A DNA stretch of 64,000 nucleotides from Acidimicrobiales bacterium. GTDB lineage: Bacteria; Actinomycetota; Acidimicrobiia; Acidimicrobiales; Bog-793. The DNA lies in assembly GCA_035294085.1 (NCBI GenBank), contig DATGLP010000006.1:2595-66594 (forward strand), read 5' to 3'. Below, in pieces: positions 33,244 through 53,754 of the stretch. Numbering within the stretch: the first letter of the stretch is position 1; each line of letters opens with the position of its first letter. The notes below the pieces were generated by a model, which saw only the letters and a list, made by a program, of their open reading frames with translations, searched no databases and was not told the origin of the DNA. The translations under genes and the position numbers were made by a program.

Positions 33244-34473
33244 ATGTCGACCGGAGCCGTCCCGACCGCACAGTCCAGTTCGCGCCACCTCGAGCGCCGA
33301 CCGAGACGGAGGCTCGGTTCCGCCGCCGTCGCCGGCCTGGCCGCCGCACTGGCCACGGCCCTCGCCGGCACGCCGGCGCTCGCCGCGCCTCGGCGCGCGG
33401 CGCACGGCACGGCCGTCGCGCACAAGGCGAAGGGCAAGAAGAAGCGGCTCAGCCAGGCGAACATCACGGTCACGGGGAACTACACGGCCGACATGCTCCC
33501 GGCGTGGGTCGCCGAGAACGCCGGCTTCTTCAAGAAGAACGGCCTGAACGCCCAGATCGTCAACTCCTCGGGCGGCTCGGCGAGCGGCGCGATCGCCGCC
33601 TTCATCGGCAACCACGAGGACTTCCTGCTCACCGCGACGCCCACCGAGATGGCGGCGCGCCAGGCCGGCGAACCGGTCATCGCCGTCTACAACGTGCGCC
33701 GCGGCGGACCCTTCTGGATCACGATCAGCTCGAGCGTCGCGCGGGCGAAGGGCATCCCGTCGGCCGGCTCGACCCCCGCGCAGGCGAGGAAGCAGCTCGC
33801 CGCCCTGCGCCGCACCCACCTCACCGTCGCCGTGACGAGCCTCGCTGCACCCGCCTACGACTACGCGGTGGCCGTCTTCCGCCAGAACGGCGTGTCGTAC
33901 GGACCGAACGGCGACGTGACCTTCGTCCCCGTCGGCAACGCCTCGGCCCAGCAGGCCGCCGTGGAGCACGGGACGACCGACGCGCTCGTCAACGATCCGC
34001 CGACCGCCGTCCTGCCCGGCACGGTGACCATCAACCTCGGGCTCCTCCCGCCGGTCGCGAGCGCCGACACTCTCTACGCGGTGACGACCGTCTCCTTCCT
34101 GCGGGCGCACCGCGACAGCGTCCAGGCGTTCGTGAACGCGCTCACCGAGGCCTGGGCCTGGGCCCACGAGCACCCAACCCTCGCCGAGCGGATCAGCGAC
34201 GCCTACAACAAGACGATCGACATCACCGACCCGACGGCGCTCAGCAAGATCTTCCACGGCGACTACGACTTCTGGGTCGGCCCGTCGATGACGCTCGGCG
34301 GCTTCACGACGGCCGAGCGCATCGCCAACATGGGGATCAAGGGCAGCACCCTGTCGGTTACCTACGGCCAGCTCGTCGACAACGTCTTCGTCAAGAACGC
34401 GCTGCGGCAGCTGCCCGCGTACCTGCGCAACAAGCTGCCGGCATCGCTGCGCCGGGCGCTGCGCGGCGGCTAG
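33244..34473 (+). CDS. ABC transporter substrate-binding protein, NMT1/SsuA/TauA-like (NitT/TauT family)
   Basis: ATG 33244. Signal-like N-terminus RRPRRRLGSAAVAGLAAALATALAGTPALAAP. The mature part resembles the NMT1/THI5-like periplasmic binding fold. Confidence 0.7.
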   Translation: MSTGAVPTAQSSSRHLERRPRRRLGSAAVAGLAAALATALAGTPALAAPRRAAHGTAVAHKAKGKKKRLSQANITVTGNYTADMLPAWVAENAGFFKKNGLNAQIVNSSGGSASGAIAAFIGNHEDFLLTATPTEMAARQAGEPVIAVYNVRRGGPFWITISSSVARAKGIPSAGSTPAQARKQLAALRRTHLTVAVTSLAAPAYDYAVAVFRQNGVSYGPNGDVTFVPVGNASAQQAAVEHGTTDALVNDPPTAVLPGTVTINLGLLPPVASADTLYAVTTVSFLRAHRDSVQAFVNALTEAWAWAHEHPTLAERISDAYNKTIDITDPTALSKIFHGDYDFWVGPSMTLGGFTTAERIANMGIKGSTLSVTYGQLVDNVFVKNALRQLPAYLRNKLPASLRRALRGG

Positions 34474-34606
34474 ACGGCGGCGAGCCGTCCCGCGACGTCG
34501 GGCCTCCGCAGGCCGCCAGCTGGGGGAGATCCGGGGCCGGCGAGCACGCGACGAACCGGGCGCGCACGCCACCGAGCACGCCACGACGAAGGAGCGAGGA
34601 AGGGGA

Positions 34607-36016
34607 ATGGACGCCACGACGCGCCGACTGGTCGACTACACCCTCGGGTTTGCGTGGGCGGACCTGACAGAGTCCGCGCGCGACCTCGCCGTTCGTCACC
34701 TCGCCGACTCGCTCGCCTGCGCGATCGCGGGCTACTTCACCGAGCCGGCGCAGGCCGCGGTGCGCGTCGCGTCACGCGTCGGCAGCGACACGCCGGTGAC
34801 CGTGCTGGGCGCGGGCATCACCTCGGCACCTGCCTACGGCGCCTTCGCCAACACCGTGATGGTTCGCGCGCTCGACTGGAACGACGGCATGCTCGCTCGA
34901 GGCGGCGGACACCCGAGCGACCTCGTCGCCGGGCTCCTCGCCGCGGCCGAGGTCGTCGGGGCCTCAGGCGTCGAGCTCCTCGAGGCGATGACGCTCTCCT
35001 ACGAGGTCCTCGGCGCCCTCGGCAACGCCGCGCCCGTCCACGAACGCGGCTGGGACCAGGGCACCTTCATGGGGGTGGCCGCCGCCCTCGGCATCGGCCG
35101 GCTCTACGGCCTCAGTGCGGACCAGCTCGCCAACGCCGTGTCGATCTCGATCGTCCCGGCGATCCCGCTCATGGTGACGCGTCGCGGCGAGCTCTCGCAC
35201 TGGAAGGGCGCGGCCACCGCCGCGGCGATCCTCAACGCGACGAACGCCGTTGCGCTGGCGCGCGAGGGCTTCACCGGGCCCAGCGAGCCCTTCGAGGGGC
35301 GCCACGGCGTCATCGAGCAGGTTTCGGGCCCCCTTGAGCTGTCCCTGCCCGTCTACCCGGACGGACCACGGGTCGTCGAGCTCTCGCACCTGAAGGCGTA
35401 CCCCGCCGAGACCCACGCGCAGGGCCTGCTCGGCATCGTCCCCGAGATCCGCGCCTGGACGGCGATCGAGGAGATCGCCTCCGTCGAGGTCGAGGCCTAC
35501 CGCATCGTCTACAGCGAGATCGGCTCGCACCCGAGTGTGTGGGACCCCAAGACGCGCGAGACGGCCGACCACAGCCTCCCCTACCTCCTCGCCGTCGCGA
35601 TGGTCGACGGCGAGGTCACCCTGGACTCCTTCCGCCCCGAGCGCATCGCGGACCCGGCGCTGCGCCCCCTGATGGCGAAGATCAGGATCGTCGAGGACCC
35701 CGCACTCACCGCCAACTACCGGCCGCCCGGGCTCGAGATCGCCGGGAACCCCTGCGTCCGGATCACGATCCGGAAGACGACGGGAGAGACCTTCGCGCGC
35801 GAGGTCACCTTCCCGAAGGGCCACTTCCGCAACCCACTCACACGCGAGGACATCGACGCCAAGCTGCAGAAGATCTGCGCCGGCGTCGTGAAGGACGACG
35901 TGCGCGACGAGATCAGAGCCGCGCTCTGGGAGGTCGCGCGCGCACCCGACGTGCGCGGCCTCCTCGCCCTCCTCGGCAGCTTCGCCGCCGACGGTGCGGC
36001 GCGCGGCACACGATGA
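34607..36016 (+). CDS. MmgE/PrpD family protein (paralogue 1)
   Basis: 469-aa ORF. FANTVMVRALDWNDGMLARGGGHPSD, RGWDQGTF and ETADHSLPYLLAVA are MmgE/PrpD hallmarks. Confidence 0.85.
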   Translation: MDATTRRLVDYTLGFAWADLTESARDLAVRHLADSLACAIAGYFTEPAQAAVRVASRVGSDTPVTVLGAGITSAPAYGAFANTVMVRALDWNDGMLARGGGHPSDLVAGLLAAAEVVGASGVELLEAMTLSYEVLGALGNAAPVHERGWDQGTFMGVAAALGIGRLYGLSADQLANAVSISIVPAIPLMVTRRGELSHWKGAATAAAILNATNAVALAREGFTGPSEPFEGRHGVIEQVSGPLELSLPVYPDGPRVVELSHLKAYPAETHAQGLLGIVPEIRAWTAIEEIASVEVEAYRIVYSEIGSHPSVWDPKTRETADHSLPYLLAVAMVDGEVTLDSFRPERIADPALRPLMAKIRIVEDPALTANYRPPGLEIAGNPCVRITIRKTTGETFAREVTFPKGHFRNPLTREDIDAKLQKICAGVVKDDVRDEIRAALWEVARAPDVRGLLALLGSFAADGAARGTR

Positions 36017-37662
36017 GGGTCGACGAAGCGCTCGCGACCGCGGTCGCGGCCGAGGGCGTCACGGCCGTGTTCGGGATGATGGGCGACGCGAACGCCCGCT
36101 GGATGCAACGCCTCGGCGAGCGCGGCGTCGAGGTCGTCCACGTCCGCCACGAGGGGGCGGGCCTCGCCATGGCCGACGGGTGGGCGCGCATGACCGGGGT
36201 GCCCGGCGTGTGCACGACCACGGGCGGCCCCGGCTGCGCCCAGCTCGCCACGACCGCCCTCGCCGCGAGCCGAGCCCGCACACCGCTCGTCGCGTTCTGC
36301 GGCGACGTGCCGCTCGGGGACGACCAGAATGCGCAGCACCTCGACCAGGCGCGCTTCGCCGCCGCGATCGAGGCCGGGTTCGTACGCCTCACGAGCGCCG
36401 AGCGCGCCCACGCGGCGATCCAGCGCGCCTTCTACCGGGCGAGGATCGAGTCGCGCCCGATCATCTTGAGCATGCCAGTCGAGGTGAAGGACCAGGAGCT
36501 CGACGACGACGACGAGTACGTGCCGTCGGCCTCGATCATCGACCCGTCACCCATCTGGCCAGAACCAGACGCCATCGAGCGAGCCGCCGAGCTCGTGGCC
36601 GCCAGCGAGCGGCCGGTGCTCCTCGTCGGACGCGGTGCGATGCGCTCGGGCGCGGGCGCGGCGGTGCGCTCGCTCGCCGATCGACTCGGCGCCGTGGTCG
36701 CGACGACGCTCATGGCGAAGAACTGGCTGAACGACTACCCCTACCACGTCGGCGTGTGCGGCCTCTTCTCGAGCCGGGTAGCCATCGAGTGCTTCGCGGC
36801 GGCCGACTGCGTCATCGCCGCGGGCGCGAGCCTCAACATCTACACGACCGAGTCCGGCTACCTCTTCCCCGCGGCGCGCTTCGTCCAGTTCGACACGAGG
36901 CCGCACCTCGTCATGGGCGACGGTCGGGCGGCGGACTGCTACGTCGAGTCCGACGCTCGCCCCGGCCTCGAGGCGCTCGACGCCGCACTCGCGCGCGCCG
37001 GGGTACGACGCGAGGGCTTCCACCGCCCCGAACTGACGGCACGCCTCGCCTCAGCACTCGACGACCCGGCCAGCTTCGATCTCCCGCCCGGCACGCTCGA
37101 CCCGCGCGACGTGGTTCGGACGCTCGACGCCGAGCTGCCGGCGCACGTCGGGATGATCCTCGGGGGCGGCCAGCAGAACCATTTCGGCATCATGCTGTGC
37201 AACAAGGCGCGAGACTGGCTCCTGCCGAACCTCCACTTCGCGGCGATCGGCCAGGGCCTCACGACGGCCATCGGCGCCGTGATCGCGATGGGGCGACGCC
37301 CCGGTTTCCTGATGGAGGGCGATGCGGGGTTCCTCATGCACCTCGCCGAGTTCGAGACCGCCGTCCGCTACCGGGTGCCGCTCCTCGTGGTCGTGATGAA
37401 CGACGAGGGCATGGCGGCCGAGTACCACTCGATGCACGCGAAGGGGGTGGACCTGCGAATGACCGCCATCCCGACGCCGGACCTCGGCCGCGTCGCGGAC
37501 GCGATGGGCGGCCGAGGGTCCCTGTGCCGCACCCTCGACGAGCTGCGCGACGCGCTACGGCGCTTCGTCGCCGATCCGGCGCCGTCCCTCGTCGACGTGC
37601 GCATCGCCCGCAACGTCCCCAGCATCCCGAACCGGCGCCGCTTCTACGGTCTCGATGCCTAG
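36013..37662 (+). CDS. thiamine diphosphate-dependent enzyme (acetolactate-synthase-like fold), paralogue A
   Basis: ATG 36013 overlaps the PrpD-like stop (ATGA). N-terminal Pyr domain with VRHEGAGLAMADGWAR. ThDP motif variant GDAGFLMHLAEFETAVRYRVPLLVVVMND (GDA-x24-ND). Confidence 0.85.
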   Translation: MRVDEALATAVAAEGVTAVFGMMGDANARWMQRLGERGVEVVHVRHEGAGLAMADGWARMTGVPGVCTTTGGPGCAQLATTALAASRARTPLVAFCGDVPLGDDQNAQHLDQARFAAAIEAGFVRLTSAERAHAAIQRAFYRARIESRPIILSMPVEVKDQELDDDDEYVPSASIIDPSPIWPEPDAIERAAELVAASERPVLLVGRGAMRSGAGAAVRSLADRLGAVVATTLMAKNWLNDYPYHVGVCGLFSSRVAIECFAAADCVIAAGASLNIYTTESGYLFPAARFVQFDTRPHLVMGDGRAADCYVESDARPGLEALDAALARAGVRREGFHRPELTARLASALDDPASFDLPPGTLDPRDVVRTLDAELPAHVGMILGGGQQNHFGIMLCNKARDWLLPNLHFAAIGQGLTTAIGAVIAMGRRPGFLMEGDAGFLMHLAEFETAVRYRVPLLVVVMNDEGMAAEYHSMHAKGVDLRMTAIPTPDLGRVADAMGGRGSLCRTLDELRDALRRFVADPAPSLVDVRIARNVPSIPNRRRFYGLDA

Positions 37663-38650
37663 ACCCTCGCGCGCTGGCACCGGGCTGGCGACGCCCGCTG
37701 CGCTCGGCGAGTGGTCGACGACGACGGACGTCGTGCGCAGCGTCGACCTCACGGGCCGGCGGGCCATCGTGACCGGCGCCACCGCGGGGCTCGGCCTGGA
37801 GAGCGCGCGGGCGCTCGCGGCCGCCGGGGCACGCGTCGTGCTGGCTGGACGCGACCCGGGGCGGCTCGCGCGCGCCGAGGAGGAGATCGAGCGCGCCGCG
37901 CCCGGTGCGCTCGTCGACGCGCTGGTCTGCGACCTCGCCTCGCTCGCGAGCGTCCGTCGTGCCACCGAGGAGGTGCGCGCGAGCGGCGAGGCGCTCGACC
38001 TGCTCGTGAACAACGCCGGCGTCACCCCCCGCTCGCTCGGGCCGGTGACCGAGGCCCCGCGCACGCTCGAGGGCTTCGAGCTCAGCCTCGGCACGAACCA
38101 CCTCGGCCACTTCCTCCTCACCTGTCGGCTCGCGCCGCTCCTCCTCGAGCACGGCGCCCGGGTCATCAACGTGGGCTCGGGCGCCCACCGCGACTCCTCG
38201 ATGCGCTGGGAGGACCCCCACTACCTGCGCCGCCCCTACGACGTACGCGAGGCCTACGGGCAGTCGAAGACGGCGAACGCGCTCTTCACCCTCGGTCTCG
38301 AGCGGCGGCTCGGGAACCGGGGAGTCCACGCCTTCACCGTTCGCCCCGGAGCCACCTCCCCGGGCGCGAGCAACGAGCGGCCCGAGCTCGTCGAGGCGGC
38401 GAGTCGAGACAAGCGCCGCTACCCGGTGGAGGTCGCGGCCGCGACGACGGTGTGGGCGTGCACGGCGCCCGAGCTCGACGCGCACGGCGCCGCCTACCTC
38501 TACCGCTGCCGCGTCGTCGCCGAGCCGGGGGCGCCAGGGTCGGCAGACGACCACGCGCCGTGGATCTTCGACGAGGACGCCGCCGAGCGCCTGTGGGCGT
38601 GGTCCGAGGAGCAGGTCGGCGAGCACTTCGCGCTCGGCGCCCCGCGATGA
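37655..38650 (+). CDS. short-chain dehydrogenase/reductase
   Basis: ATG 37655 overlaps the upstream gene by 8 nt. TGATAGLG cofactor motif, NNAG, and catalytic YGQSK. Confidence 0.85.
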   Translation: MPRPSRAGTGLATPAALGEWSTTTDVVRSVDLTGRRAIVTGATAGLGLESARALAAAGARVVLAGRDPGRLARAEEEIERAAPGALVDALVCDLASLASVRRATEEVRASGEALDLLVNNAGVTPRSLGPVTEAPRTLEGFELSLGTNHLGHFLLTCRLAPLLLEHGARVINVGSGAHRDSSMRWEDPHYLRRPYDVREAYGQSKTANALFTLGLERRLGNRGVHAFTVRPGATSPGASNERPELVEAASRDKRRYPVEVAAATTVWACTAPELDAHGAAYLYRCRVVAEPGAPGSADDHAPWIFDEDAAERLWAWSEEQVGEHFALGAPR

Positions 38651-38762: not shown

Positions 38763-40403
38763 GTGACGACCAGCGGTGCCGAGACCGGCACGGTCGCTGC
38801 GGCGATCGCGGCCTGCGTGGCGGACCTCGGCATCCGCCGCGTCTACGGCCTGCCCGGCGAGGACCACCTCCTCCTCCTCCACGAGCTCGAGCTCGCCGGC
38901 TGCACCTACGTGCCCGCGCGCGACGAGAGCGCGGCCTGCATCATGGCGGCCGCCGAGAGCCAGGCGACCGGGCTGCCCGGACTCGCCGTCGTCACCTTGG
39001 CCCCGGGCATCACGAACGCCCTGAACGGCCTGGCGAGCGCGTTCTTGGACCACGTCCCCCTCCTCGTCGTGAGCGGCCAGCACGACCCTGATCGCCGGCC
39101 GCTCATCGTGCGCCAGTCCCTCGATTCCCACGCGCTCGTCGCGCCGGTCACGAAGTGGCGGGCGACCATCGGGGGCCACGTCCACCAGCTCCTCGCGAAG
39201 GCGCTCGACGCCGCGGTCGCACCCCCCGCCGGCCCCGTCTTCCTGGAGCTCCCGCCGTCGGTGGCGCGCAGCCCGGCGCTCGATGGCGCGCCCGACTGGC
39301 GCCCCCTTCTCGCCGGCACCGACCGCCCCGGGCCGCCGGTGGCTCCGCCGGGCGCGCTCGCCCCGGTGCGCGAGGCGCTCGGCGCGGCGCGCCGACCGGT
39401 CGTCCTCGTCGGCGGCCGCTGCCCGCCCGACGCCGGTCCGCCGATCGCGCGCCTCGCGGCGGCGCTGCGCGCTCCGGCGTTCACGACGCCGGCGGCCAAG
39501 GGGACGCTGCGAGACGGCGACCCCTTCCTCGCCGGCACCTTCCTCAACGGCAACCTCGAGGCGGCGCTGCTCGAGCGAGCCGACGTCGTGCTCGCGGTGG
39601 GGCTCGACGCCTACGACTTCTTCAACGGCCCCTGGCGCTACGGCGCCACGATCCTCGCCGTCGAGCCCGACGCGACGAGCGTGCAGCGCGTCCTGCCCGC
39701 GCGCTACCAGGTCGTCGGGGACCCGCGGACGCTGTGCGAGGACCTCCTCGCCGGCGAGCTCGCCGGCGCGTCCGCGTGGGAGCCTGGCGACGTCGCCGCC
39801 TACCGTGCCGGCGTGCTCGAGCGGTTCTCGCTCGACGACGAGGCGCTCACGATCCCCGCGGCGATCGTCGACGCTCGCTCGCTGCTCCCCGACGACACCA
39901 TCGTCACCGTCGATGCCGGCTTCGGCAAGCCCCTCCATGCGCTCCTGTGGGCGGCGCGCTGCCCCAACGCCTGCTTCAGCTCCCAGGGGCTGTCGACGAT
40001 GGGCTACGCGATCCCGGCCGCCAACGCCCTCAAGCTCGTCTGGCCGCAGCGCACGGTCGTCGCCTTCCTCGGCGACGGATCCCTCTACCTGCGCGCGAGC
40101 GAGATCGGGGTCGCCGCCGAGCAGGGCGTGGCGCCGATCTACGTCGTGTGGTCCGACGCCTGCCTCTCGCAGATCGCGGTGAAGCAGGACCGTCAGTCGC
40201 TCAGGCGCGTCGGCGTCGACGTCGCCGCATCGTCCTGCGAGCGCATCGCAGCCGCCTTCGGCGGAGTCGGCTGGGACGTGGACAGCCGCGCCTCGTTCCG
40301 CGACGCGCTGCGCGAGGCGATGGCCTCGCGTGCCCCGGCGCTCATCGGCGCTCGGGTCGACCAGCGCTCGCGCGCGTCGTGGTTCGAGCTCGTCCGCGGC
40401 TGA
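38763..40403 (+). CDS. thiamine diphosphate-dependent enzyme (acetolactate-synthase large-subunit-like), divergent third member
   Basis: 546-aa ORF. VYGLPGEDHLLLLHEL, ARDESAACIMAAA and GDGSLYLRASEIGVAAEQGVAPIYVVWSD (atypical end of the ThDP motif). Confidence 0.8.
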   Translation: MTTSGAETGTVAAAIAACVADLGIRRVYGLPGEDHLLLLHELELAGCTYVPARDESAACIMAAAESQATGLPGLAVVTLAPGITNALNGLASAFLDHVPLLVVSGQHDPDRRPLIVRQSLDSHALVAPVTKWRATIGGHVHQLLAKALDAAVAPPAGPVFLELPPSVARSPALDGAPDWRPLLAGTDRPGPPVAPPGALAPVREALGAARRPVVLVGGRCPPDAGPPIARLAAALRAPAFTTPAAKGTLRDGDPFLAGTFLNGNLEAALLERADVVLAVGLDAYDFFNGPWRYGATILAVEPDATSVQRVLPARYQVVGDPRTLCEDLLAGELAGASAWEPGDVAAYRAGVLERFSLDDEALTIPAAIVDARSLLPDDTIVTVDAGFGKPLHALLWAARCPNACFSSQGLSTMGYAIPAANALKLVWPQRTVVAFLGDGSLYLRASEIGVAAEQGVAPIYVVWSDACLSQIAVKQDRQSLRRVGVDVAASSCERIAAAFGGVGWDVDSRASFRDALREAMASRAPALIGARVDQRSRASWFELVRG

Positions 40404-43023: not shown

Positions 43024-43220
43024 CTCACCAGCTCCCTTCGACCACGGCGACGCACCCGCCGCCGATGCACCTCGACGACGGGCCGACGGACCCGATCCCG
43101 CGGTCGGGGCCACCGCGTACCTCGCCCGCACCCCTCGCCACGGCGACGGGGCCGGTCGCCGGGACCCCTCCAGCGTGCCCTCGAGATCGAGCACCGTTGA
43201 CGCCCGACCGAGACGGCCGT

Positions 43221-44820: not shown

Positions 44821-45234
44821 GTGGACCACTTCGAGTACCTACGGAACGTCGACTGGGAGCGGCTGCGGGCCACGCCTGCAACCGAGCGGGTCACGCAGCG
44901 GCTCCTCGACCCAAGCTCGGGCGCGGCGAACTGCACCTTCGCCGTCATCCGCACCCCGCCGGGCGGCGCCTCGCCCGAGGGGCTGCACGTCCACGAGGTC
45001 GAGCAGCTCGTCTACGTGCTCGACGGCACCCTCAGCGTCGACGTCGACGGAAGGCGCCTGAGCGTCGAGCCCGGCGGTCTCGTCGTGCTCCCGCCGCAGG
45101 TGCCCCACCGAGTCGCGAACGAGGCGCACGAGCCGAGCCTCCACATCGCCATCAACGCACCCGCGCCCGATCCCCGCCAGCCCCGGGCTCGCCGCGTCGA
45201 AGCCGGGGACGCCTCGGAGGCTCGCGCCCGGTGA
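44821..45234 (+). CDS. cupin domain protein
   Basis: 137-aa ORF with a GGAGGGG RBS. Cupin motifs GLHVHEVEQLVYVLDG and LVVLPPQVPHRVAN. Confidence 0.75.
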   Translation: MDHFEYLRNVDWERLRATPATERVTQRLLDPSSGAANCTFAVIRTPPGGASPEGLHVHEVEQLVYVLDGTLSVDVDGRRLSVEPGGLVVLPPQVPHRVANEAHEPSLHIAINAPAPDPRQPRARRVEAGDASEARAR

Positions 45235-46754: not shown

Positions 46755-47587
46755 GCCTGGCGACGCAGACGATCGGGGTGGGCCGGACGGCACGCGGGCT
46801 GCGCCGCCTCAACCAGGTCGACCTCGCGGCGCTCGCCGCGCGCCTCGGCACGCTCGGCGTCGTCGCCGCGCTCTGGCAGGTCTTCGCTGGCGGACCGAGG
46901 AGCGTGCTGCCCGCGGACGTGGTCGGTCGGCCGTCGAGCATCCTCGCCTCGCTCTGGCACCTGGTCGTCGACGGCCAGTTCTTCTCGTCGCTCGGCCTCA
47001 CGGCGCTCTCGGTGTGCTACGCCCTCGTGCTCGCGGTGCCGATCGGGGTCGGCCTCGGCCTCCTCACCACGATCCGGCCGATCGGCTGGCTCCTCCAGCC
47101 ACTCGTGAACCTGACCTACGCGATCCCGAAGGTCGGCCTCGTGACGCTGTACGTGCTGCTCCTCGGTACGCACCCCGACACGCACGTGGCCCTCGTCCTG
47201 AGCCAGATCCTCTTCGTCTTCTACTACGCCACCCGCCAGGCGATCCTCGAGCTCGACCCCGGCGTCGTCACCGCGCTGCGTCTGATGGGCGCCTCGCGCC
47301 TCAAGCTCGTCTGCTCGCTCGCCCTGCGAGCGGCGCTCCCGCACCTGCTCGCCGCGATCCGCCTGTGCGTCCCGCTCGCCTTCGCGACCGAGATCTTCGC
47401 CGAGCTGCGCGCCCCGACCTCGAGCGGGCTCGGGGTCCTCCTGCAGAACCTCATCACCGCTGGCGACGGCGCGGCGGCGATGGCGATCATGCTGTGCACC
47501 GCCCTCATCGGCTACCTGCTCGATCTCGTGATCGGGCGCCGGCTGCGCGCCTACACGACGTCCATCGGCGTCGGACTCCCGACGTGA
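46751..47587 (+). CDS. ABC transporter permease
   Basis: ATG 46751 overlaps the ATPase stop (ATGA). About 6 TM. EAA-like loop ATRQAILELDPGVVTALRLMGASRLK. Confidence 0.85.
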   Translation: MSLATQTIGVGRTARGLRRLNQVDLAALAARLGTLGVVAALWQVFAGGPRSVLPADVVGRPSSILASLWHLVVDGQFFSSLGLTALSVCYALVLAVPIGVGLGLLTTIRPIGWLLQPLVNLTYAIPKVGLVTLYVLLLGTHPDTHVALVLSQILFVFYYATRQAILELDPGVVTALRLMGASRLKLVCSLALRAALPHLLAAIRLCVPLAFATEIFAELRAPTSSGLGVLLQNLITAGDGAAAMAIMLCTALIGYLLDLVIGRRLRAYTTSIGVGLPT

Positions 47588-48378
47588 GCAATCCCCTACG
47601 CCTCGCCCGGCGCGCCGGCGCCTCCGTCCTCCAGTGGGCGTGCTCGCTCGGCCTCGGGTACGCGCTGTGGCGCTTCGTGCTCGCGCCGCACCTCTCCCCC
47701 GTCTTCTTCACGGGGCCCAACCAGGTGTTCTCACAGCTGCGGTCCTTCGCCGAGACCGGTGCGCTCTGGTCGATGGTGCGCGTCACCCTCTCCGAGGCCC
47801 TCCTCGGCTTCGCCCTCGGCGCAACGATCGGCGTCCTCCTCGCGGTTGCGATCGGCGTGCTGCCGAGCCTGTTCGCGAAGGTCGTCGAGCCGGTCGTCAG
47901 CGGCGTCTACGCCATGCCGAAGTTCGTGCTCGCCCCGATCCTGTTCGTCTGGGTCGGGACGGGGCTTCTGCCCCGCGCCTACCTCGTGCTCGCCGCCGTG
48001 CTGCCAGTCGTGACGATCTACACGGTGGGCGGGATCCGCACCGTCGACACCGACCAGGTGAAGATGCTCCTCCTCCTCGGGGCGAATCGCCGCCAGGTGG
48101 CGAGGACGCTCATCGTCCCCCACATGTTCCGCTACCTCATGACGTCGATCGCCGTCGTCATCCCGCACGCCCTCACCGTGGCGGTAGGCGCCGAGATCCT
48201 CTTCGGGGCGGACAACGGCATCGGGGGCACGCTGTACACCGCGGGCGAGTTCTTCCGCCCCGCCGCGGTGCTCGGGGCCCTCTTGGTCGGGACGATCATC
48301 TCCGCCGTCTTGATGGCGGCGTCGCGCGCGGTCGAGTCGCACTTCCTCGGTCGCATGGCGGGGAGCGCGCGAGGATGA
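47584..48378 (+). CDS. ABC transporter permease
   Basis: GTG 47584 overlaps the upstream stop (GTGA). About 6 TM. EAA-like loop GGIRTVDTDQVKMLLLLGANRRQ. Confidence 0.85.
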   Translation: MSNPLRLARRAGASVLQWACSLGLGYALWRFVLAPHLSPVFFTGPNQVFSQLRSFAETGALWSMVRVTLSEALLGFALGATIGVLLAVAIGVLPSLFAKVVEPVVSGVYAMPKFVLAPILFVWVGTGLLPRAYLVLAAVLPVVTIYTVGGIRTVDTDQVKMLLLLGANRRQVARTLIVPHMFRYLMTSIAVVIPHALTVAVGAEILFGADNGIGGTLYTAGEFFRPAAVLGALLVGTIISAVLMAASRAVESHFLGRMAGSARG

Positions 48379-48463: not shown

Positions 48464-49213
48464 GTGGCCCTAGAGCAAGAGCGCGAGACGCGGTCGCTCG
48501 TCGACCGCGCCTACCTGCGGCTCAAGGCCGCGATCCACACCGGTCAGTTCCAGCCGGGGACCCGCCTTCGCGAGGTCGAGCTCGGCGAGTGGCTCGGCAT
48601 CAGCCGCACCCCGATCCGTGAGGCCCTGAACCGCCTCGAGTCCGAGGGCATGATCGAGGCCGCGCCTCGAGGCGGGCGCGTCGTGACCGGACTCGACCAG
48701 CAGCGCATGTCCGAGATCTACGCGGTGCGCGACGTCCTCGAGGGACTCGCCGCCGAGCTCGCCGCCGAGCACGCCTCGAGCGCGGAGCTCGCGACGCTGC
48801 GGGCGCTGCTCGACCAGCAGGCGCAGACGCCGGCGACGGACGCGATCGCCCTCGCCCAGCAGAACACCGCGTTCCACGACGTCATCTACCGAGCGGCTCG
48901 GAACCGCTACCTCGTCATCGTCCTGCGATCGCTCGAGAACGCCTCCGCCCTGCTCCCGGTGCCCGGGACGACGCACAGCGTCCCGCTGCCGGGCACGACC
49001 TACAACTTCCCCGGGCGCGCCGAGTCCGCCCTCGCGCAGCACCGCCAGCTCGTCGACGCGCTCGAGGCTCGGGACGCTGCCCGGGCGGGCAAGATCGCCC
49101 GCGAGCACATCCGCGAGGCCGAGCGCATCCGCCTGCTCATGCTCTCGGGGACGGGGGCTCCCGGACAGGCGCCAGCGGTCGACGGCCCGCTCGCCCGCCC
49201 CCATGCCGAGTAG
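48464..49213 (+). CDS. GntR family (FadR/FCD subfamily) transcriptional regulator
   Basis: AAGGAG lies before GTG 48464. wHTH ELGEWLGISRTPIREALNRLESEGMI, followed by an FCD-like helical domain. Confidence 0.9.
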   Translation: MALEQERETRSLVDRAYLRLKAAIHTGQFQPGTRLREVELGEWLGISRTPIREALNRLESEGMIEAAPRGGRVVTGLDQQRMSEIYAVRDVLEGLAAELAAEHASSAELATLRALLDQQAQTPATDAIALAQQNTAFHDVIYRAARNRYLVIVLRSLENASALLPVPGTTHSVPLPGTTYNFPGRAESALAQHRQLVDALEARDAARAGKIAREHIREAERIRLLMLSGTGAPGQAPAVDGPLARPHAE

Positions 49214-49250
49214 CAGGCGCGCCGGGCGCGAGCTGGAGGGCCGGACAGCG

Positions 49251-50687
49251 GTGCCGAAGCCCTTCATCATCGGCGACCGCTTCGTCGACGACGCCGACGA
49301 CGTCCTGGTGTCGACGAACCCGGCCGACGGCAGCGTCAACTGGGAGGTCTGCGCCGCCCGCGAGGACCACGTCGTCGAGGCGGTGCGCGTCGCCGACGAG
49401 GCGTGGCGCTCCTCCGGCTGGCGCGACCTCCTGCCCCACGAGCGGGCCCGGGCGCTCGCGCGGCTGGCGGCTGCGATCGAGGCGAACGCCGAGGAGCTCG
49501 CGACCGTGCAGCGGCGCGAGAACGGCAAGCTGGCACGCGAGTGCAGCGCCCAGGCGCGCGCCGCAGCGGCGACCTTCCGCTACTACGCAGCGGTCTGCGA
49601 GACGGTGGACGGCGATCTCACGCCACCGCGCGGCCCCTACCTGTCGATGTGCCTCTACGAGCCGTACGGCGTCGTGGCAGCGATCACGCCGTTCAACTCG
49701 CCCCTCACCCTCGAGGCCCAGAAGCTGGCCCCGGCGCTCGCCGCGGGCAACGCTGTCGTGCTGAAGCCCTCGGAGGTGACGCCGAGCGTGGCGATCGAGT
49801 TCGCCCGGCTCGCGCTCGACGCGGGGCTCCCGCCGGGCCTGGTGAACGTCCTCCCCGGCCGGGGCGACGTTGCCGCCGCGCTCCTCGAGCAGCCGGCGGT
49901 CCGCATGGTCTCCTTCACTGGCGGAACGACGACCGGCCACGCCGTGGCCGCGGCGGCGGCGCGGCGGATCATCCCGGCCGTGCTCGAGCTCGGCGGGAAG
50001 TCGCCGCACATCGTCTTCGCGGACGCGGACCTCGACGCGGCTGCCGACGCCGTCGCTTCCGGCATCTTCCAGGCGAGTGGGCAGTCCTGCGTCGCCGGCT
50101 CGAGGGTCCTCGTCGAGCGACCGATCGCCTCCCGCTTCGTCTCGGCGCTCGTCGAGCGAGCTCGGGCGCTGCGGGTCGGCGACCCGGCGTCGCCGGACGC
50201 ACAGATGGGGCCGCTCGCGAGCTTCGCCCAGCGCGAGCGCGTCGAGGCGTATGTCGCCGCCGCGCTCGCCGAGGGCGGGCGCGTCCTCGCCGGCGGGGAC
50301 CGGCCGGTGGGATCGGCGTACGATCGCGGCGCCTACCTCCTGCCGACGGTCATCGACGGGCTCGCGGCCGGTTCGCGCGTCCTTCGCGAGGAGATCTTCG
50401 GCCCGGTGCTCTGCATCGTCCGCTTCGACAGCGAGGAGGACCTCGTGACCGAGGCGAACGACACGCCCTTCGGCCTCGCCTGCGGAATCTGGACTGCCGA
50501 CTACCGCAGGGCGTGGCGCGTCGCTCGTGCGATCGAGGCCGGGACCGTGTGGGTCAACACCTACAAGGAGCTCAGCATCTCGACGCCCTTCGGCGGCTTC
50601 AAGCAGAGCGGGCTCGGGCGGGAGAAGGGGGTTCTCGGGCTGCGCAGCTACCAGCAGGCGAAGAGCCTCTACTGGGGTCTCGCCTAG
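49251..50687 (+). CDS. NAD(P)-dependent aldehyde dehydrogenase
   Basis: GTG 49251 follows GGAGGG. ELGGKSP, catalytic GQSCVAGSR, and PFGGFKQSGLGRE. Confidence 0.9.
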   Translation: MPKPFIIGDRFVDDADDVLVSTNPADGSVNWEVCAAREDHVVEAVRVADEAWRSSGWRDLLPHERARALARLAAAIEANAEELATVQRRENGKLARECSAQARAAAATFRYYAAVCETVDGDLTPPRGPYLSMCLYEPYGVVAAITPFNSPLTLEAQKLAPALAAGNAVVLKPSEVTPSVAIEFARLALDAGLPPGLVNVLPGRGDVAAALLEQPAVRMVSFTGGTTTGHAVAAAAARRIIPAVLELGGKSPHIVFADADLDAAADAVASGIFQASGQSCVAGSRVLVERPIASRFVSALVERARALRVGDPASPDAQMGPLASFAQRERVEAYVAAALAEGGRVLAGGDRPVGSAYDRGAYLLPTVIDGLAAGSRVLREEIFGPVLCIVRFDSEEDLVTEANDTPFGLACGIWTADYRRAWRVARAIEAGTVWVNTYKELSISTPFGGFKQSGLGREKGVLGLRSYQQAKSLYWGLA

Positions 50688-50707
50688 CCGTGGCCGGAGG
50701 ACGACCG

Positions 50708-51697
50708 GTGCGGCTCGGGCTGCTCGACCCGCTCGACGAGGGGCTCCTGCGCGAGCTCAGGGCACGCCTCCCGGCGCGCTGGGAGCTCGCCTGCGCGGCC
50801 TCCGCGCGCACCGACGACCAGGCCGCGGCGGCCCGAAGCGCAGACGCGGTCCTCGTCATCTGGTCCGCCGTGTCCCGCCCGGTCCTCGAGGCGTCGGCGA
50901 GCCTCCGCCTCGTCCAGAAGCTCGGCGTCGGCGTCGACAAGGTGGATCTCGAGTGCTGCCGGGAGCGGGGCGTCGCGGTCGCGCGTCTCGCCGGCGTGAA
51001 CGCGCCCGCCGTCGCCGAGCACGTCGTCATGCTCGTCCTCGCGTCGCTCCGGCGCCTCGCCAGCTCGGACCGCAGGGTGCGCGCCGGCGAGTGGTTCAAG
51101 GAGGAGGCACGCGCCTTCCAGCGGCAGCTGCGGGCCAAGACGGTCGGGCTCGTCGGTCTCGGCCACGTCGGTACCGAGGTCGCGAAGCGCCTTCGCCCCT
51201 TCGAGGTCCTCCTCCTCTACACCGACCTGCGCCGCGCCCCGCGCGCCACGGAGCGGCGCCTCGGCCTGCGCTTCGTCGGCCTCGACGAGCTGCTCGCCTC
51301 CTCGGACGTCGTCTCCCTCCACGTCCCGTACTCGCCGTCGAGCGCGAACCTGCTGAGCGCCGAACGCATCGCTCAACTGCGCGAGGGGGCCGTCGTCGTG
51401 AACTGCGCGCGCGGTGGACTCGTCGACGAGGACGCGCTCGCGGACGCACTCGCGAGCGGTCGGCTCGCTGGTGCCGGACTCGACACCTTCGCGGGCGAGC
51501 CGGTGGTGAGCGAGCGCCTGCGCGCGCTCGACACGGTCGTGCTGACGCCGCACTGCGCGGGAGCGGTCGCGGACAACTTCCCCTTCGTGGTCGAGCGCGC
51601 CCTCGCCAACGTCTCGTCCTACCTCGCGAGCGGCGAGCTGCCAGCCGAGGACCGCATCTTCGTGCCCGGCGCGGAGCACCCCGGCCTCGGTGGGTGA
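50708..51697 (+). CDS. D-isomer-specific 2-hydroxyacid dehydrogenase
   Basis: GTG 50708 lies 8 nt after GGAGG (GTG 50690 is an alternative). GLVGLGHVGTEVAKRL, NCARGGLVDE and TPHCAG. Confidence 0.85.
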   Translation: MRLGLLDPLDEGLLRELRARLPARWELACAASARTDDQAAAARSADAVLVIWSAVSRPVLEASASLRLVQKLGVGVDKVDLECCRERGVAVARLAGVNAPAVAEHVVMLVLASLRRLASSDRRVRAGEWFKEEARAFQRQLRAKTVGLVGLGHVGTEVAKRLRPFEVLLLYTDLRRAPRATERRLGLRFVGLDELLASSDVVSLHVPYSPSSANLLSAERIAQLREGAVVVNCARGGLVDEDALADALASGRLAGAGLDTFAGEPVVSERLRALDTVVLTPHCAGAVADNFPFVVERALANVSSYLASGELPAEDRIFVPGAEHPGLGG

Positions 51698-53153
51698 CGT
51701 GGACGCGCTGGTTCGCCGGCTCGTCGAGCTCACCTCGTCGTTCTCGCTCGCCGAGGTCCCGGATCGGGCCCGCCGGGCTGCCGTGCGCCACATCGTCGAC
51801 TCCGTCGCGTGCGCCATCGCCGGCTACGGCACCGAGCCAGGGCGCCGGGCGCGGCGCTTCGCCGGCGCGCTGCGCCACGAGCCCGGCGCGACCGTGATCG
51901 GCGCCGGCACGAAGAGCGCGCCGGCCTATGCGGCGTTCGCGAACACCGTGATGGTGCGCGCTCTCGACTGGAACGACGGCATGCTCGCCCGTGGCGGCGG
52001 CCACCCGAGTGACATGCTCGGGGCGCTCTTCGCGACCGGCGAGGTGGCCGGATCGTCGGGCGCGCAGGTGCTCGAGGCGACGGTCCTCGCCTACGAGCTC
52101 CTCGGCGCGCTCGGCCGCGTCGCGCCGCTCACCGAGCGAGGGTGGGACCAGGGGCTGTTCGTCGGCGCTGCCGCGGCGCTGGCGATGGGCAAGCTCCTCG
52201 GACTGCGCGAGCGCGAGCTCGCGAATGCGCTCTCGCTGTCGCTCGTGCCGGCAGTCCCGCTGCTCGTGACGCGGCGGGGAGAGATCTCGATGTGGAAGAA
52301 CGCCGCCACGGCCTGGGCCCTGCTCAATGCGACGAACGCTGTCGCGTTCGCCGAAGCAGGCATGACCGGCCCCTCGCACCCCTTCGAGGGGCCCTGCGGT
52401 GTCTTCGACCAGGTGACCGGCCGCATCGAGCCGCAGCTGCCCGCCGACCCCGAGGGCGCCCTCGTGATCGAGCTCTCCCACCAGAAGCTGTTCCCCGCCG
52501 AGTCGCACGCCCAGGCGCTCCTCGGGCTCCTGCCACGCCTTCGCGCCTTCACGAGCGTCGAGGAGATCGAGGCGATCGAGATCGAGGCCTACGCCGTGCT
52601 GCGCAACGCGATCGGCTCGCACCCTTCGGTCTACGATCCGAAGACGCCCGAGACCGCGGACCACAGCCTGCCGTACCTCCTCGCGGTCGGCCTCGTCGAC
52701 GGCGCGGTCACGCCCGCCTCCTTCACCCCCGAGCGCCTCGCCGACCCGGCGCTGCGCCCCCTCATGGCACGCATCTCGATTCGCGAGGATCCGGACCTCA
52801 CCGCGGGCTACCGCCCGGCGAGGAGCGAGATCTCCGGGGCGCCGCGCGCGAGGATCACGGTGCGCAAGCGATCCGGTGAGGTGCTCGAGGCGGAGGCCTC
52901 CTTCCCGAAGGGCCACGCGCGCAACCCGTTCGACGACGACGACGTGAACGCCAAGCTGGACGTGGCCTGCGCCGGTCGGCTGACCGAATCGCAGCGGGAG
53001 ACGGTGCGCGGCGCGTGGTGGCGGATCGAGGAGGCCCCGACGCTGGCGCCGTTGATGGCGACGATCGCCGACCTCGGTGCGTCGGAAGAGCCGGGGGCGA
53101 GAGGGCGCGCCACCTCGCGCGCCGCTAGGCCGGCGTCTCCGAGTACATCTTGA
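51690..53153 (+). CDS. MmgE/PrpD family protein (paralogue 3)
   Basis: 487-aa ORF overlapping the upstream gene by 8 nt. It has the same hallmark blocks as paralogues 1 and 2. Its 3' end overlaps the convergent GntR gene by 29 nt. Confidence 0.85.
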   Translation: MGDVDALVRRLVELTSSFSLAEVPDRARRAAVRHIVDSVACAIAGYGTEPGRRARRFAGALRHEPGATVIGAGTKSAPAYAAFANTVMVRALDWNDGMLARGGGHPSDMLGALFATGEVAGSSGAQVLEATVLAYELLGALGRVAPLTERGWDQGLFVGAAAALAMGKLLGLRERELANALSLSLVPAVPLLVTRRGEISMWKNAATAWALLNATNAVAFAEAGMTGPSHPFEGPCGVFDQVTGRIEPQLPADPEGALVIELSHQKLFPAESHAQALLGLLPRLRAFTSVEEIEAIEIEAYAVLRNAIGSHPSVYDPKTPETADHSLPYLLAVGLVDGAVTPASFTPERLADPALRPLMARISIREDPDLTAGYRPARSEISGAPRARITVRKRSGEVLEAEASFPKGHARNPFDDDDVNAKLDVACAGRLTESQRETVRGAWWRIEEAPTLAPLMATIADLGASEEPGARGRATSRAARPASPSTS

Positions 53154-53754
53154 GCCGCAGGTCGCGCGCCGCGCTCATGTGCTGTGCGGCGATCTTCGCC
53201 GCCTCCTCGGCCCTCCCCTCGCTGATGGCTTCGATGAGCGCCTCGTGCTCGCTGAGGACCGTTTCCCAGCGTCCGGGGTAGTTGAGGGTCGGCTCGGGGT
53301 AGCGGTGGAGGAGCGTGCTGATGCGCTCGAGCAGGTCGCGCAGCGTCCGGTTGTGGCTCGCCACCCAGATCTGTTCGTGGAAGGCCCGGTTCGCGCGGAT
53401 CCTCGCGTCGGCGTCCTCGAAGGGGAGCTGGCACATGTCCCGGTGGAGGTGGACGAGGCGGTTGAGGTCGAGCTCGCTCCGGCGCGACGCGGCCGAGCGT
53501 GCGGCGAACTCCTCGAGGAGGACGCGCAGCTCGTAGATCTCGAGGATCTCCTCCGGGCTCTGGCGCCGCACCTCGAGGCCACCACCCGTCGGCTCGACGA
53601 GGCCGTCCTGGCGCAGCTTGAGCAGCGCCTCGCGAATCGGCGTCCTCGACACACGGAAGCGCTTCGCCAGGGCAGTCGCAACGAGTGGCGTACCGGGCGC
53701 GAGCTTCCCCGTCACGATCTCGTCGCGCAGCGCGTCGTAGACGGAGCGTGCCAT
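53125..53754 (-). CDS. GntR family (FCD subfamily) transcriptional regulator
   Basis: 209-aa ORF. wHTH LAKRFRVSRTPIREALLKLRQDGLV, then an FCD-like domain. Confidence 0.9.
   Translation of the reverse strand: MARSVYDALRDEIVTGKLAPGTPLVATALAKRFRVSRTPIREALLKLRQDGLVEPTGGGLEVRRQSPEEILEIYELRVLLEEFAARSAASRRSELDLNRLVHLHRDMCQLPFEDADARIRANRAFHEQIWVASHNRTLRDLLERISTLLHRYPEPTLNYPGRWETVLSEHEALIEAISEGRAEEAAKIAAQHMSAARDLRLKMYSETPA

Follow-up and report, generated by a model that had tools for sequence, protein, structure and literature searches.

The gene cluster between positions 33244 and 53754 of a 64,000-nucleotide stretch of DNA from an Acidimicrobiales bacterium (contig DATGLP010000006.1, positions 2,595 to 66,594; hereafter the window) probably serves the uptake and breakdown of a carboxylic acid. 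It is a GntR-regulated catabolic cluster built from known superfamilies and contains two orphan subfamilies as well as an association with a CoxG-like protein that has not been described for any thiamine diphosphate (ThDP) enzyme. We give an even chance to the reading that it forms a GntR/FCD-controlled catabolic supra-operon with a NitT/TauT-type importer for related hydroxy- and oxo-polycarboxylic acids of the substituted-succinate or citrate type. This reading builds on directly observed features, namely the protein families, the integrity of the genes, their translational coupling, the recurrence of sub-modules in other genomes and operator-like sites. The genes of the cluster are:

33244-34473, plus strand: secreted substrate-binding protein (SBP) of the NMT1/THI5 (NitT/TauT) type with an RRRL-containing signal-like N-terminus (Pfam NMT1, NMT1_2)
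34607-36016, plus strand: PrpD1, hydro-lyase-like protein of the MmgE/PrpD family, clade A (Pfam MmgE_PrpD_N, MmgE_PrpD_C)
36013-37662, plus strand: ThDP1, acetolactate synthase (ALS)-like, ThDP-A family, ThDP1 sublineage (three TPP_enzyme domains)
37655-38650, plus strand: classical short-chain dehydrogenase/reductase (SDR) (Pfam adh_short)
38763-40403, plus strand: ThDP3, ThDP-B type, catabolic-ALS-like, motif GDG-x24-SD (Pfam, NCBIfam)
40426-41352, minus strand: aldo/keto reductase (AKR), 21 nt downstream of ThDP2 and codirectional with it (Pfam Aldo_ket_red, 227 bits)
41374-43023, minus strand: ThDP2, ALS-like, ThDP-A family, mainstream sublineage (Pfam, NCBIfam, motif)
43375-44793, plus strand: PrpD2, clade B (Pfam, tree)
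44821-45234, plus strand: small metal-binding cupin of 137 aa, HVHEVEQ ... PHRVAN (Pfam Cupin_2)
45231-45869, plus strand: CoxG-like SRPBCC protein (Pfam COXG)
45915-46754, plus strand: ABC ATPase of the NitT/TauT type (Pfam ABC_tran)
46751-47587 and 47584-48378, plus strand: two permeases of the NitT/TauT type (Pfam BPD_transp_1)
48464-49213, plus strand: GntR/FCD regulator 1 (GntR1), within the long plus-strand operon (Pfam GntR, FCD)
49203-50687, plus strand: NAD(P)-dependent aldehyde dehydrogenase (ALDH) (Pfam Aldedh, 530 bits)
50690-51697, plus strand: D-isomer-specific 2-hydroxyacid dehydrogenase (2HADH), alternative start at 50708 (Pfam 2-Hacid_dh, 2-Hacid_dh_C)
51690-53153, plus strand: PrpD3, clade A (Pfam, motifs, tree)
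53125-53754, minus strand: GntR/FCD regulator 2 (GntR2), convergent with PrpD3 (Pfam GntR, FCD)

Genes were called by frame analysis of the third-position GC content (GC3), the window having about 74% GC, and then checked with Pfam. The eighteen genes that a first, sequence-only reading of this DNA had proposed were all recovered at the coordinates above, free of internal stops and with the Pfam models covered nearly end to end. The assigned families were confirmed, including those of the SDR, AKR, cupin, CoxG-like protein, ALDH, 2HADH, importer and the two FCD-type GntR regulators. Pseudogenisation was ruled out, as every reading frame is intact. The GC content of the region (0.72-0.76) equals that of the flanks; this leaves no compositional sign of a recent horizontal transfer, which was likewise ruled out. 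Of the formerly proposed "catabolic island", the catabolic type of the cluster stands, and the compositionally distinct island does not.

Many neighbouring genes overlap. PrpD1 and ThDP1 share the ATGA overlap described in the sequence-only reading, a GTGA overlap joins the genes of the cupin and the CoxG-like protein, and ThDP1/SDR and 2HADH/PrpD3 overlap by 8 nt each. Start/stop overlaps are also found at the ATPase/permease, permease/permease and GntR1/ALDH junctions. ThDP2 and PrpD2 are divergent, with 351 bp between them. From these overlaps and the strands, the transcription units are the SBP gene, PrpD1–ThDP1–SDR(–ThDP3), the minus-strand pair ThDP2–AKR, one long unit that spans PrpD2 to PrpD3 on the plus strand, and GntR2. 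The distance of 11.4 kb between the SBP gene and the ATPase gene, also described before, was confirmed.

NCBIfam equivalog models were run on all 18 proteins, and none of the 18 reached a cut-off. By this measure none of them belongs to a characterised family. The earlier statement that no known pathway joins the PrpD family with a ThDP partner agrees with our literature searches, in which the library covered yielded no paper linking MmgE/PrpD with thiamine, cupin, protocatechuate, lignin, CoxG, SRPBCC or SAR202, and none joining the two NCBI product names.

The three PrpD paralogues share 60.2, 59.4 and 56.7% pairwise identity and belong to the MmgE/PrpD superfamily, with 201-211 bits for the N domain and 127-140 bits for the C domain (Pfam cut-off 32.1). 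Both motifs reported as common to the paralogues occur verbatim in all three; they are family-wide PrpD active-site motifs with subfamily-specific flanks, to which LDFNDTWLAAEWGHPSDN and DRDHCIQY align in the PrpD proteins of E. coli and Salmonella. The equivalog models for PrpD itself were scored far below their cut-offs (NF042438, 159-183 versus 950 bits, with PrpD1 at 159; NF006943, 114-132 versus 575; TIGR02330, 80-98 versus 458), and the families of the methylcitrate-cycle genes prpB, prpC, acnD and prpF were not found in the cluster or its flanks. A profile of the paralogues matched PrpD with 141 bits, iminodisuccinate (IDS) epimerase with 120, cis-aconitate decarboxylase (CAD) with 98-104 and bacterial Irg1 with 80-85 bits. 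The proteins are therefore closer to PrpD than to CAD/Irg1 or to IDS epimerase, and they keep the ADH..Y element. The PrpD-type active-site motifs LDxND, GHPSD, PAExHxQ and DH..Y are retained; where the window proteins and PrpD have (T/D)(A/R)DH, IDS epimerase reads EEAKFSIE, so that the ADH element is common to the window proteins and true PrpD but not to IDS epimerase. The profile scores and the retained ADH element suggest that the window proteins most likely perform PrpD-like hydro-lyase chemistry as a separate subfamily.

To our knowledge, only four or five activities are known in the MmgE/PrpD family, and the substrates of its characterised members, among them 2-methylcitrate, cis-aconitate and iminodisuccinate, are all C2-substituted succinates in the free form. 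A further one is (S)-methylsuccinate (PMC9875883). In a neighbour-joining tree PrpD2 (clade B) grouped with PrpD proteins of Streptomyces and Actinomadura which head PrpD–cupin–CoxG operons and are, in this same context, 59-60% identical to it. PrpD1 and PrpD3 fell into a sister clade (A) with their own orthologues, and those of PrpD1 adjoin ThDP genes in two loci (L168, L169). A scan of a genome collection with the PrpD alignment (L013-L083), in which counts refer to the matches listed and are useful only for the spread of the motifs, gave mostly relatives of 35-48% identity in other phyla without ThDP neighbours. These listed relatives keep GGGHPSD and ETADHS, are common in metagenome-assembled genomes of Burkholderiales, Binatia, Rokubacteria, Dehalococcoidia and Thaumarchaeota, and often occur as two or three adjacent paralogues of a very large uncharacterised PrpD subfamily.

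Among the ThDP enzymes, ThDP1 and ThDP2 share 63.6% identity and the sequence GDAGFLMHLAEFETAVRYR(V/L)PLLVVVMND, a GDA-x24-ND motif with Ala for Gly and a final Asp for Asn relative to GDG...NN of plant acetohydroxyacid synthase (AHAS). ThDP3, with 27% identity to ThDP1, reads GDG-x24-SD, in which Ser takes the usual position of the Mg-ligand Asn. The description of two related enzymes and a divergent third is borne out by these values. ThDP1 and ThDP2 are members of the superfamily of ALS, pyruvate oxidase (POX) and decarboxylases, with three TPP_enzyme domains, the invariant Glu of RHEG and GDA-x24-ND; ThDP3 has all three domains and a deviating metal motif. No characterised subfamily was reached by any of them: ThDP1 and ThDP2 obtained 207-231 versus 538 bits with the AHAS model TIGR00118, and ThDP3 obtained 243 versus 509 bits with the ALS model PRK08322 and 125 versus 493 bits with the benzoylformate decarboxylase (BFDC) model PRK07092.

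Sequence and profile searches of the PDB and a Foldseek search with the AF2 model of ThDP2 (pLDDT 82.5) revealed no near solved relative. The model was equidistant from AHAS, benzaldehyde lyase (BAL), 2-hydroxyacyl-CoA lyase (HACL), catabolic ALS and cyclohexanedione hydrolase (CDH), with TM scores of 0.82-0.86 and about 24% identity. In the PDB search with ThDP1 only, BbmA and CsmA came out on top at 130 bits, and their function could not be established. Opposite the AHAS stretches MLGMHG and GVRFDDRVTG, ThDP2 reads ISGLYA and GASLN-RYTTE in the alignment; MLGMHG and RFDDR, which we take to be FAD contacts, are unconserved there, and ThDP2 does not appear to belong to the FAD-dependent ALS/POX enzymes. 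ThDP2 orthologues with 56-71% identity occur across Actinomycetota, Chloroflexota and presumed Proteobacteria, and tblastn of ThDP2 against annotated plasmids returned only matches of at most 36% identity. Of the ThDP enzymes encoded immediately downstream of clade-A PrpD genes, that of L169 is clearly nearer to ThDP1 (61.5%, versus 54.8% to ThDP2) and that of L168 marginally so (61.5 versus 60.0%), and ThDP proteins encoded beside GntR or CoxG genes are nearer to ThDP2 (61-66 versus 50-59%). ThDP3 is 42% identical to the ThDP-B enzymes that head ThDP–2HADH–ALDH operons in Streptomyces and Actinomadura.

The cluster was compared with about 170 loci in all (numbered with L), comprising about 25 long contexts and short metagenome contigs. 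Clusters of this type are also found in Streptomyces, Actinomadura and numerous contigs from soil metagenomes, and the PrpD subfamily and the 549-aa ThDP-A family are widespread in Streptomyces, Actinomadura, Nocardioides, Nonomuraea, Micromonosporaceae, Pseudonocardiaceae, Chloroflexota and soil metagenomes. An SDR–ThDP–PrpD group with 45, 67 and 60% identity, respectively, was found in L171, PrpD–ThDP tandems in L168 and L169, and ThDP–PrpD–SDR in L148; L006 and L092 have an AKR and/or SDR with ThDP-A (AKR orthologues 59-60%, the SDR of L092 51%). The recurring unit hence comprises three genes, with an SDR or AKR accompanying PrpD and ThDP. The order PrpD–cupin–CoxG-like is shared by the window, L002, L003 and L173, and cupin–CoxG without PrpD was seen on the fetched stretches of L088, L089 and L170; most of these relatives have a fusion of the CoxG domain with an alpha/beta-hydrolase. 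ThDP-B–2HADH–ALDH is found in L002, L003, L170 and L173, often followed by a FAD_binding_2 oxidoreductase. L169 (soil metagenome Ga0133547_10003802) carries on 16 kb four PrpD-family genes, a stronger expansion of paralogues than that of the window, together with ThDP-A, cupin, CoA_trans, thiolase/DUF35 and 2HADH.

The importer genes were said to be separated by inserted enzyme genes. A compact unit of SBP, PrpD, ATPase, two permeases and GntR in L172 (37-65% identity, ATPase and permeases 55-65%) supports this, as the window looks like such a unit with enzyme genes inserted; the adjacency of SBP and PrpD is kept in L004/L005 and L172. CoA-transferases with thiolase/DUF35, MaoC or HpcH/HpaI lyase, PrpD and a luciferase-like monooxygenase accompany the relatives in L003, L084 and L169-L172, and the window is without this module. 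A GntR gene divergent from ThDP-A is typical of homologous clusters. TctC tricarboxylate receptors occur in the metagenome ThDP-A loci (31 genes in 13 loci), whose other neighbours include GFO/IDH/MocA oxidoreductases, a cyclase, Amidohydro_2, cupins of the 3-hydroxyanthranilate dioxygenase (3-HAO) type, HpcH/HpaI aldolases and CoA_transf_3.

As the PrpD clades and the ThDP sublineages have separate orthologues and contexts, the paralogues are old and differentiated, each with orthologues elsewhere, and not a recently duplicated module. The "duplicated two-enzyme module" of the sequence-only reading is contradicted by this: PrpD1 and PrpD3 fall into a different old clade from PrpD2, and ThDP1 and ThDP2 represent separate sublineages. 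The recurrence of an SDR/AKR–ThDP–PrpD trio and the position of AHAS among the closest sequence and fold relatives of ThDP-A could also fit a biosynthetic or salvage route similar to ALS, ketol-acid reductoisomerase and dihydroxyacid dehydratase, in which ThDP-A would form an acyloin, the SDR or AKR would reduce it and PrpD would dehydrate the diol acid to a 2-oxo acid. We consider this very unlikely in view of the importer with its secreted binding protein, the FCD-type repressors and the ALDH; the neighbours vary in a mosaic, catabolic-looking manner, and Pfam detected no tailoring, export or scaffold genes in the cluster.

The CoxG-like protein scored 49.6 bits with PF06240 (cut-off 22.2) and matched CoxG of M. 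smegmatis (PDB 8uds_D) with E = 1.6e-9. It has the domain and tail of the CoxG family, a COXG (SRPBCC) domain followed by a Pro/Ala linker and a membrane-directed, basic amphipathic C-terminal helix that is not transmembrane, and an exhaustive homologue search showed this tail architecture to be kept among about 109 homologues. The coxSML genes of Mo-CO dehydrogenase were not found beside it. With the ThDP-A protein as the sole query, 80 metagenome loci were fetched, 62 of which contained enough upstream sequence. In 41 of these 62 loci the gene immediately upstream of ThDP-A, on the same strand, was a CoxG-like one of 42-51% identity; counting any position in the locus, such a gene occurred in 54 of the 80. 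Of the 47 loci whose flanks reach 3 kb or more, only 2 contained a PrpD of at least 40% identity. In the metagenome loci the ThDP1/2 family is consequently accompanied most often by the CoxG-like gene and not by PrpD, which qualifies the PrpD–ThDP pairing emphasised earlier; the pairing itself is upheld by direct tandems in unrelated contigs (L168, L169, L171, L148, L086), and a functional link between PrpD and the ThDP1/2 family is supported.

This faithful association would be explained if ThDP-A and the CoxG-like protein formed a PoxB- or PQO-like oxidoreductase for 2-oxo acids, associated with the membrane and coupled to quinone; the SRPBCC protein would deliver the quinone or tether the enzyme to the membrane. 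The match to CoxG and the conserved domain, linker and helix are in line with such a role, since true CoxG extracts menaquinone and anchors carbon monoxide dehydrogenase (CODH) (PMC12202499) and a CoxG-like protein anchors glycerol-3-phosphate dehydrogenase (G3PDH) in Sulfolobus (PMC11962113). Many CoxG-like neighbours, however, are bare 150-aa domains without the tail, Streptomyces-type clusters fuse the domain to an alpha/beta-hydrolase instead, and the best 150 representatives include no CoxG::ThDP fusion. Together with the missing conservation of the presumed FAD contacts in ThDP2, this makes the quinone-coupled enzyme improbable. The fusions (L002, 11797-13095; L003, 11787-13040; L170, 1-920; L173, 11769-12998; L088, 276-1496) join the SRPBCC domain to Hydrolase_4 or Abhydrolase_6, whose position is held in the window by the linker and amphipathic helix. 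The SRPBCC::hydrolase fusion hints at an ester or lactone substrate.

The importer is of the NitT/TauT type, with an NMT1-type SBP, BPD_transp_1 permeases and an ABC ATPase; it reached no substrate-specific equivalog. The best NCBIfam matches of its ATPase and permeases were TauB (207 versus 357 bits), SaoA/P, SsuC and TauC, all under cut-off, and the SBP matched SsuA (31 versus 163 bits) and SaoX weakly. Such matches are in line with organosulfonates as substrates, an idea that the sequence-only reading had offered as speculation in view of a TauT-type importer and ThDP enzymes. Sulfolactate or dihydroxypropanesulfonate (DHPS) would be taken up by a TauABC-like system and converted by the 2HADH and a sulfopyruvate decarboxylase-like ThDP enzyme to sulfoacetaldehyde, the substrate of an Xsc-like ThDP enzyme, an IsfD-like SDR or a SafD-like ALDH. 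The enzyme types are formally compatible with the known sulfolactate route, and the Xsc subfamily model was the second-best for ThDP2 with 213 bits. The scores, however, lie far under the cut-offs (Xsc models NF005713, 193-213 versus 620 bits, and TIGR03457, 175-190 versus 676), which led us to reject organosulfonates as the leading interpretation. Neither phosphotransacetylase (pta) nor sulfite-export genes, the neighbours typical of Xsc, nor a sulfite dehydrogenase gene was found in the cluster, PrpD is without a role in the route, and the relatives reside among tricarboxylate receptors, CoA-transferases and ring-cleavage genes. An organosulfonate substrate is accordingly very improbable.

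The remaining enzymes also stayed below equivalog cut-offs, the SDR with 264 versus 414 bits (PRK06196), the ALDH with 461 versus 669 bits for its best model BADH and the 2HADH with 207 versus 454 bits (PGDH). The cupin has a full His/His/Glu/His metal site, and its PDB matches to quercetinase, RemF and 3-HAO were weak (33-36 bits). Both regulators belong to the FadR/FCD subfamily of GntR proteins, with a winged helix-turn-helix and a C-terminal FCD domain, and are 39.6% identical to each other.

An operator shared by the divergent ThDP2 and PrpD2 genes had been postulated, and an operator-like site was indeed seen there, with a second copy upstream of the SBP gene:

33129-33146, plus strand: operator-like AT-rich 18-bp site GTATACCTTTGCATACAA, upstream of the SBP gene
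43224-43241: second operator-like site GTATACAGTTGTGTACAA, in the ThDP2/PrpD2 divergent region
43197-43249: face-to-face promoter-like sites TTGACG-17-TATCGT (plus) and TTGACG-17-TACGAT (minus), which flank and overlap GTATACAGTTGTGTACAA

The pattern has two matches in the window; as it was derived from both, the count and the shuffle statistic are not independent. Related CGTATACA and TTGTATGC..GCATACAA elements, candidate operators of the GTATAC / TTGnnTACAA type, occur upstream of GntR/ThDP, PrpD or ABC genes in L002, L003, L004, L084 and L170. Through the AT-rich candidate operator common to both places, one type of regulator probably represses the promoter of the SBP gene as well as the divergent promoters of ThDP2 and PrpD2. 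The sites would fit a single FCD-type repressor that controls uptake and enzymes together.

From these features we infer the order and the types of the reactions and the class of the substrate. A carboxylate is suggested by the FCD regulators of the cluster, by the TctC receptors around the relatives and by the action of PrpD-family enzymes on free acids. A similar context is provided in L084 and L169-L172, where PrpD paralogues adjoin genes of an itaconate-pathway-like or Bbs-like kind, among them CoA_transf_3, HpcH/HpaI lyase, MaoC and thiolase with DUF35. The tight coupling of PrpD with SDR, AKR or 2HADH, with ThDP and with ALDH suggests a hydration (or dehydration) followed by an oxidation, a cleavage or decarboxylation with ThDP and a final aldehyde oxidation. 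The PrpD-like enzymes would act first as hydro-lyases or isomerases on the free acid, moving water across the carboxylate-bearing C2-C3 bond as PrpD does on 2-methylcitrate. The SDR, AKR and 2HADH would then interconvert the resulting alcohol and the matching 2-oxo acid or alpha-hydroxy-ketone, the ALS-like ThDP enzymes would cleave the C–C bond beside the carbonyl by 2-oxo acid decarboxylation or acyloin-type cleavage, and the ALDH would turn the aldehyde into a shorter acid for entry into central metabolism. Three units could share these tasks: PrpD1–ThDP1–SDR; ThDP2–AKR with PrpD2–cupin–CoxG-like; and ThDP3 with ALDH–2HADH–PrpD3, the latter possibly as a mandelate-like alpha-oxidation of a 2-hydroxy acid via 2-oxo acid and aldehyde to an acid.

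Several points weigh against a polycarboxylic acid pathway of this kind. No enzyme of the cluster has a characterised relative of more than about 30% identity. ThDP-A may not be a decarboxylase but a carboligase, a lyase or a hydrolase, since AHAS, benzaldehyde lyase, HACL and cyclohexanedione hydrolase are all equally near to its predicted fold. The cupin and the CoxG-like protein, the latter being the most faithful neighbour of the ThDP family, receive no role in the model, and the comparison, drawn from long contexts and short contigs, is not a complete census. Finally, ring-cleavage dioxygenases in several related loci indicate that the substrate may be aromatic.

In an aromatic-acid lower pathway, the cupin (LigAB or a 3-HAO-like cupin in the relatives) would open a hydroxylated ring, the PrpD proteins would hydrate or isomerise an unsaturated oxalo-type tricarboxylate such as 4-oxalomesaconate or analogues of 4-carboxy-4-hydroxy-2-oxoadipate (CHA), ThDP-A would remove the oxalo carboxyl group, the ALDH would yield aconitate- or citrate-like acids, and the CoxG-like SRPBCC protein would bind an aromatic ligand. 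LigB–LigA–PrpD–ThDP–esterase–Rieske(LigXa_C) genes with several Amidohydro_2 genes nearby in L086/L087/L108, where LigB matches class III extradiol dioxygenase models, are consistent with such a pathway. So are presumed proteobacterial loci with CoxG–ThDP–cyclase–Amidohydro_2–3-HAO and TctC receptors, the CoxG–HpcH/HpaI aldolase–Amidohydro_2–ThDP genes of L085, L112, L115 and L126, an FAA-hydrolase-like gene after ThDP-A in L170, and the complete metal site of the window cupin. The window itself, however, contains no recognised ring-hydroxylating or ring-cleaving dioxygenase besides this 137-aa cupin with its weak PDB matches, Pfam detected no Amidohydro_2, aldolase or Rieske genes in it, and the PrpD of L086 is just 25% identical to the window proteins. 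Ring cleavage is therefore an unlikely, if appreciable, alternative to the breakdown of hydroxy- and oxo-polycarboxylic acids by the hydro-lyase, dehydrogenase and ThDP steps proposed here. We also tentatively envisage, at well below an even chance, an as yet undescribed CoA-independent route for substituted succinate- or citrate-type acids in which differentiated PrpD hydro-lyases, a dedicated SDR or AKR and the orphan ThDP subfamily would make up a conserved module for hydration, oxidation and cleavage, the ThDP enzymes also cooperating with their CoxG-like, membrane-directed partner. Alkyl-citrates, hydroxy-citrates, derivatives of itaconate and oxalo-type products of ring cleavage would be examples of its substrates.

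Other genes of the window were recorded alongside the cluster. The radical-SAM gene thiC (31201 to about 32899, minus strand) borders it and is preceded by a TPP riboswitch (Rfam RF00059, 57.9 bits; 32900-33003, minus strand). The riboswitch overlaps the thiC start at 32931 of the longest reading frame, so that the true start lies further downstream. Control of the SBP gene by the riboswitch was ruled out, as it is located on the minus strand and serves thiC; the neighbourhood of a thiamine-biosynthesis gene and a cluster with three ThDP enzymes is probably a coincidence. Between a LysR regulator and thiC, a molybdopterin oxidoreductase set (25749-31164) comprises an Fe-S/NrfD fusion (25749-27314), a catalytic subunit (27332-30268) and a NarJ-like chaperone (30265-31164). 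The stretch 15806-22447 encodes a 2-oxoacid dehydrogenase complex with E1 alpha, E1 beta and E2 (19123-22447), an E3-like protein with an N-terminal extension (17027-19030, minus strand) and an adjoining CitMHS-family transporter (15806-17008, minus strand). Downstream of GntR2, about 1.7 kb (53755-55455) have a weak coding signal, with a DoxX-family membrane protein (54087-54713, plus strand) as the sole Pfam match and two long minus-strand reading frames without a family match. A small catabolic unit follows at 58160-63395, with an FCD-type GntR gene (60549-61355, minus strand) and, divergent from it, a transketolase-like ThDP enzyme that is split (61462-62340 and 62337-63395); close to them are a DAO-type FAD oxidoreductase (59218-60426) and a HIBADH-like dehydrogenase (58160-59086). 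All counted, the window encodes at least six ThDP-dependent enzymes.

The cluster is a reasonable target for enzyme discovery and not a new type of system. If the proposed pathway is true, it would provide a first function for a PrpD clade that numbers thousands of proteins among soil Actinomycetota, Chloroflexota and Proteobacteria, and for the tightly conserved 549-aa ThDP enzyme family. The MmgE/PrpD family would gain a new reaction context, and the use of plant-, fungus- or lignin-derived polycarboxylic acids by abundant soil bacteria would become apparent. The CoxG-like/ThDP pairing would take CoxG-type lipid- or quinone-binding partners past molybdo- and flavoenzymes. Should the model prove wrong, what remains is an ordinary catabolic cluster of mosaic make-up.

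Compared with known systems, the window PrpD proteins have the same two-domain fold and active-site motifs as the methylcitrate-cycle PrpD of E. coli and Salmonella (PDB 1szq, 5mvi) and are probably also hydro-lyases on a free hydroxy-polycarboxylate. They differ in their identity of about 27%, in the presence of three paralogues in one cluster and in their partners, which are ThDP enzymes, an SDR, an AKR and a cupin. The itaconate and branched short-chain dicarboxylate cluster PA0878-PA0886 of P. aeruginosa also employs a PrpD-family enzyme on a free acid in the catabolism of substituted succinates; this protein, PA0881, is a proposed isomerase and structurally closest to IDS epimerase (PMC9875883). 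CoA_transf_3, a MaoC hydratase and an HpcH/HpaI lyase are shared with PA0878-PA0886 by relatives of the cluster, whereas the window itself is without CoA-transferase, hydratase and lyase genes and, unlike PA0878-PA0886, encodes ThDP enzymes, a cupin and a CoxG-like protein.

The window ThDP enzymes share with AHAS/catabolic ALS, benzaldehyde lyase, HACL and CDH the three-domain ThDP fold, the catalytic Glu (RHEG) and the metal motif GD(A/G)-x24-N(D/N). They are about 24% identical to each, with none nearest, are encoded without a gene for an ALS small subunit and stand in a catabolic context. The triad of a 2HADH, a ThDP enzyme of the ALS/BFDC superfamily and an ALDH resembles the mandelate pathway, which proceeds from a 2-hydroxy-acid dehydrogenase via benzoylformate decarboxylase to benzaldehyde dehydrogenase. 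It is contiguous in Streptomyces, Actinomadura, L170 and L173 and also present in the window, and the likeness would be one of mechanism only, as the window dehydrogenase belongs to the D-2-hydroxyacid family and not to the FMN-dependent mandelate dehydrogenases and matches no equivalog. With CoxG of M. smegmatis (8uds; PMC12202499) and the Sulfolobus anchor (PMC11962113), the CoxG-like protein has in common the SRPBCC/COXG domain, the flexible linker, the membrane-directed C-terminal helix and a gene position beside that of a presumed enzyme partner. In the window this partner is a ThDP enzyme with no apparent sign of FAD binding in its sequence, where the known systems have a molybdo- or flavoenzyme; the helix is of a basic amphipathic kind and no transmembrane anchor, and in some related clusters the domain is fused to an alpha/beta-hydrolase.

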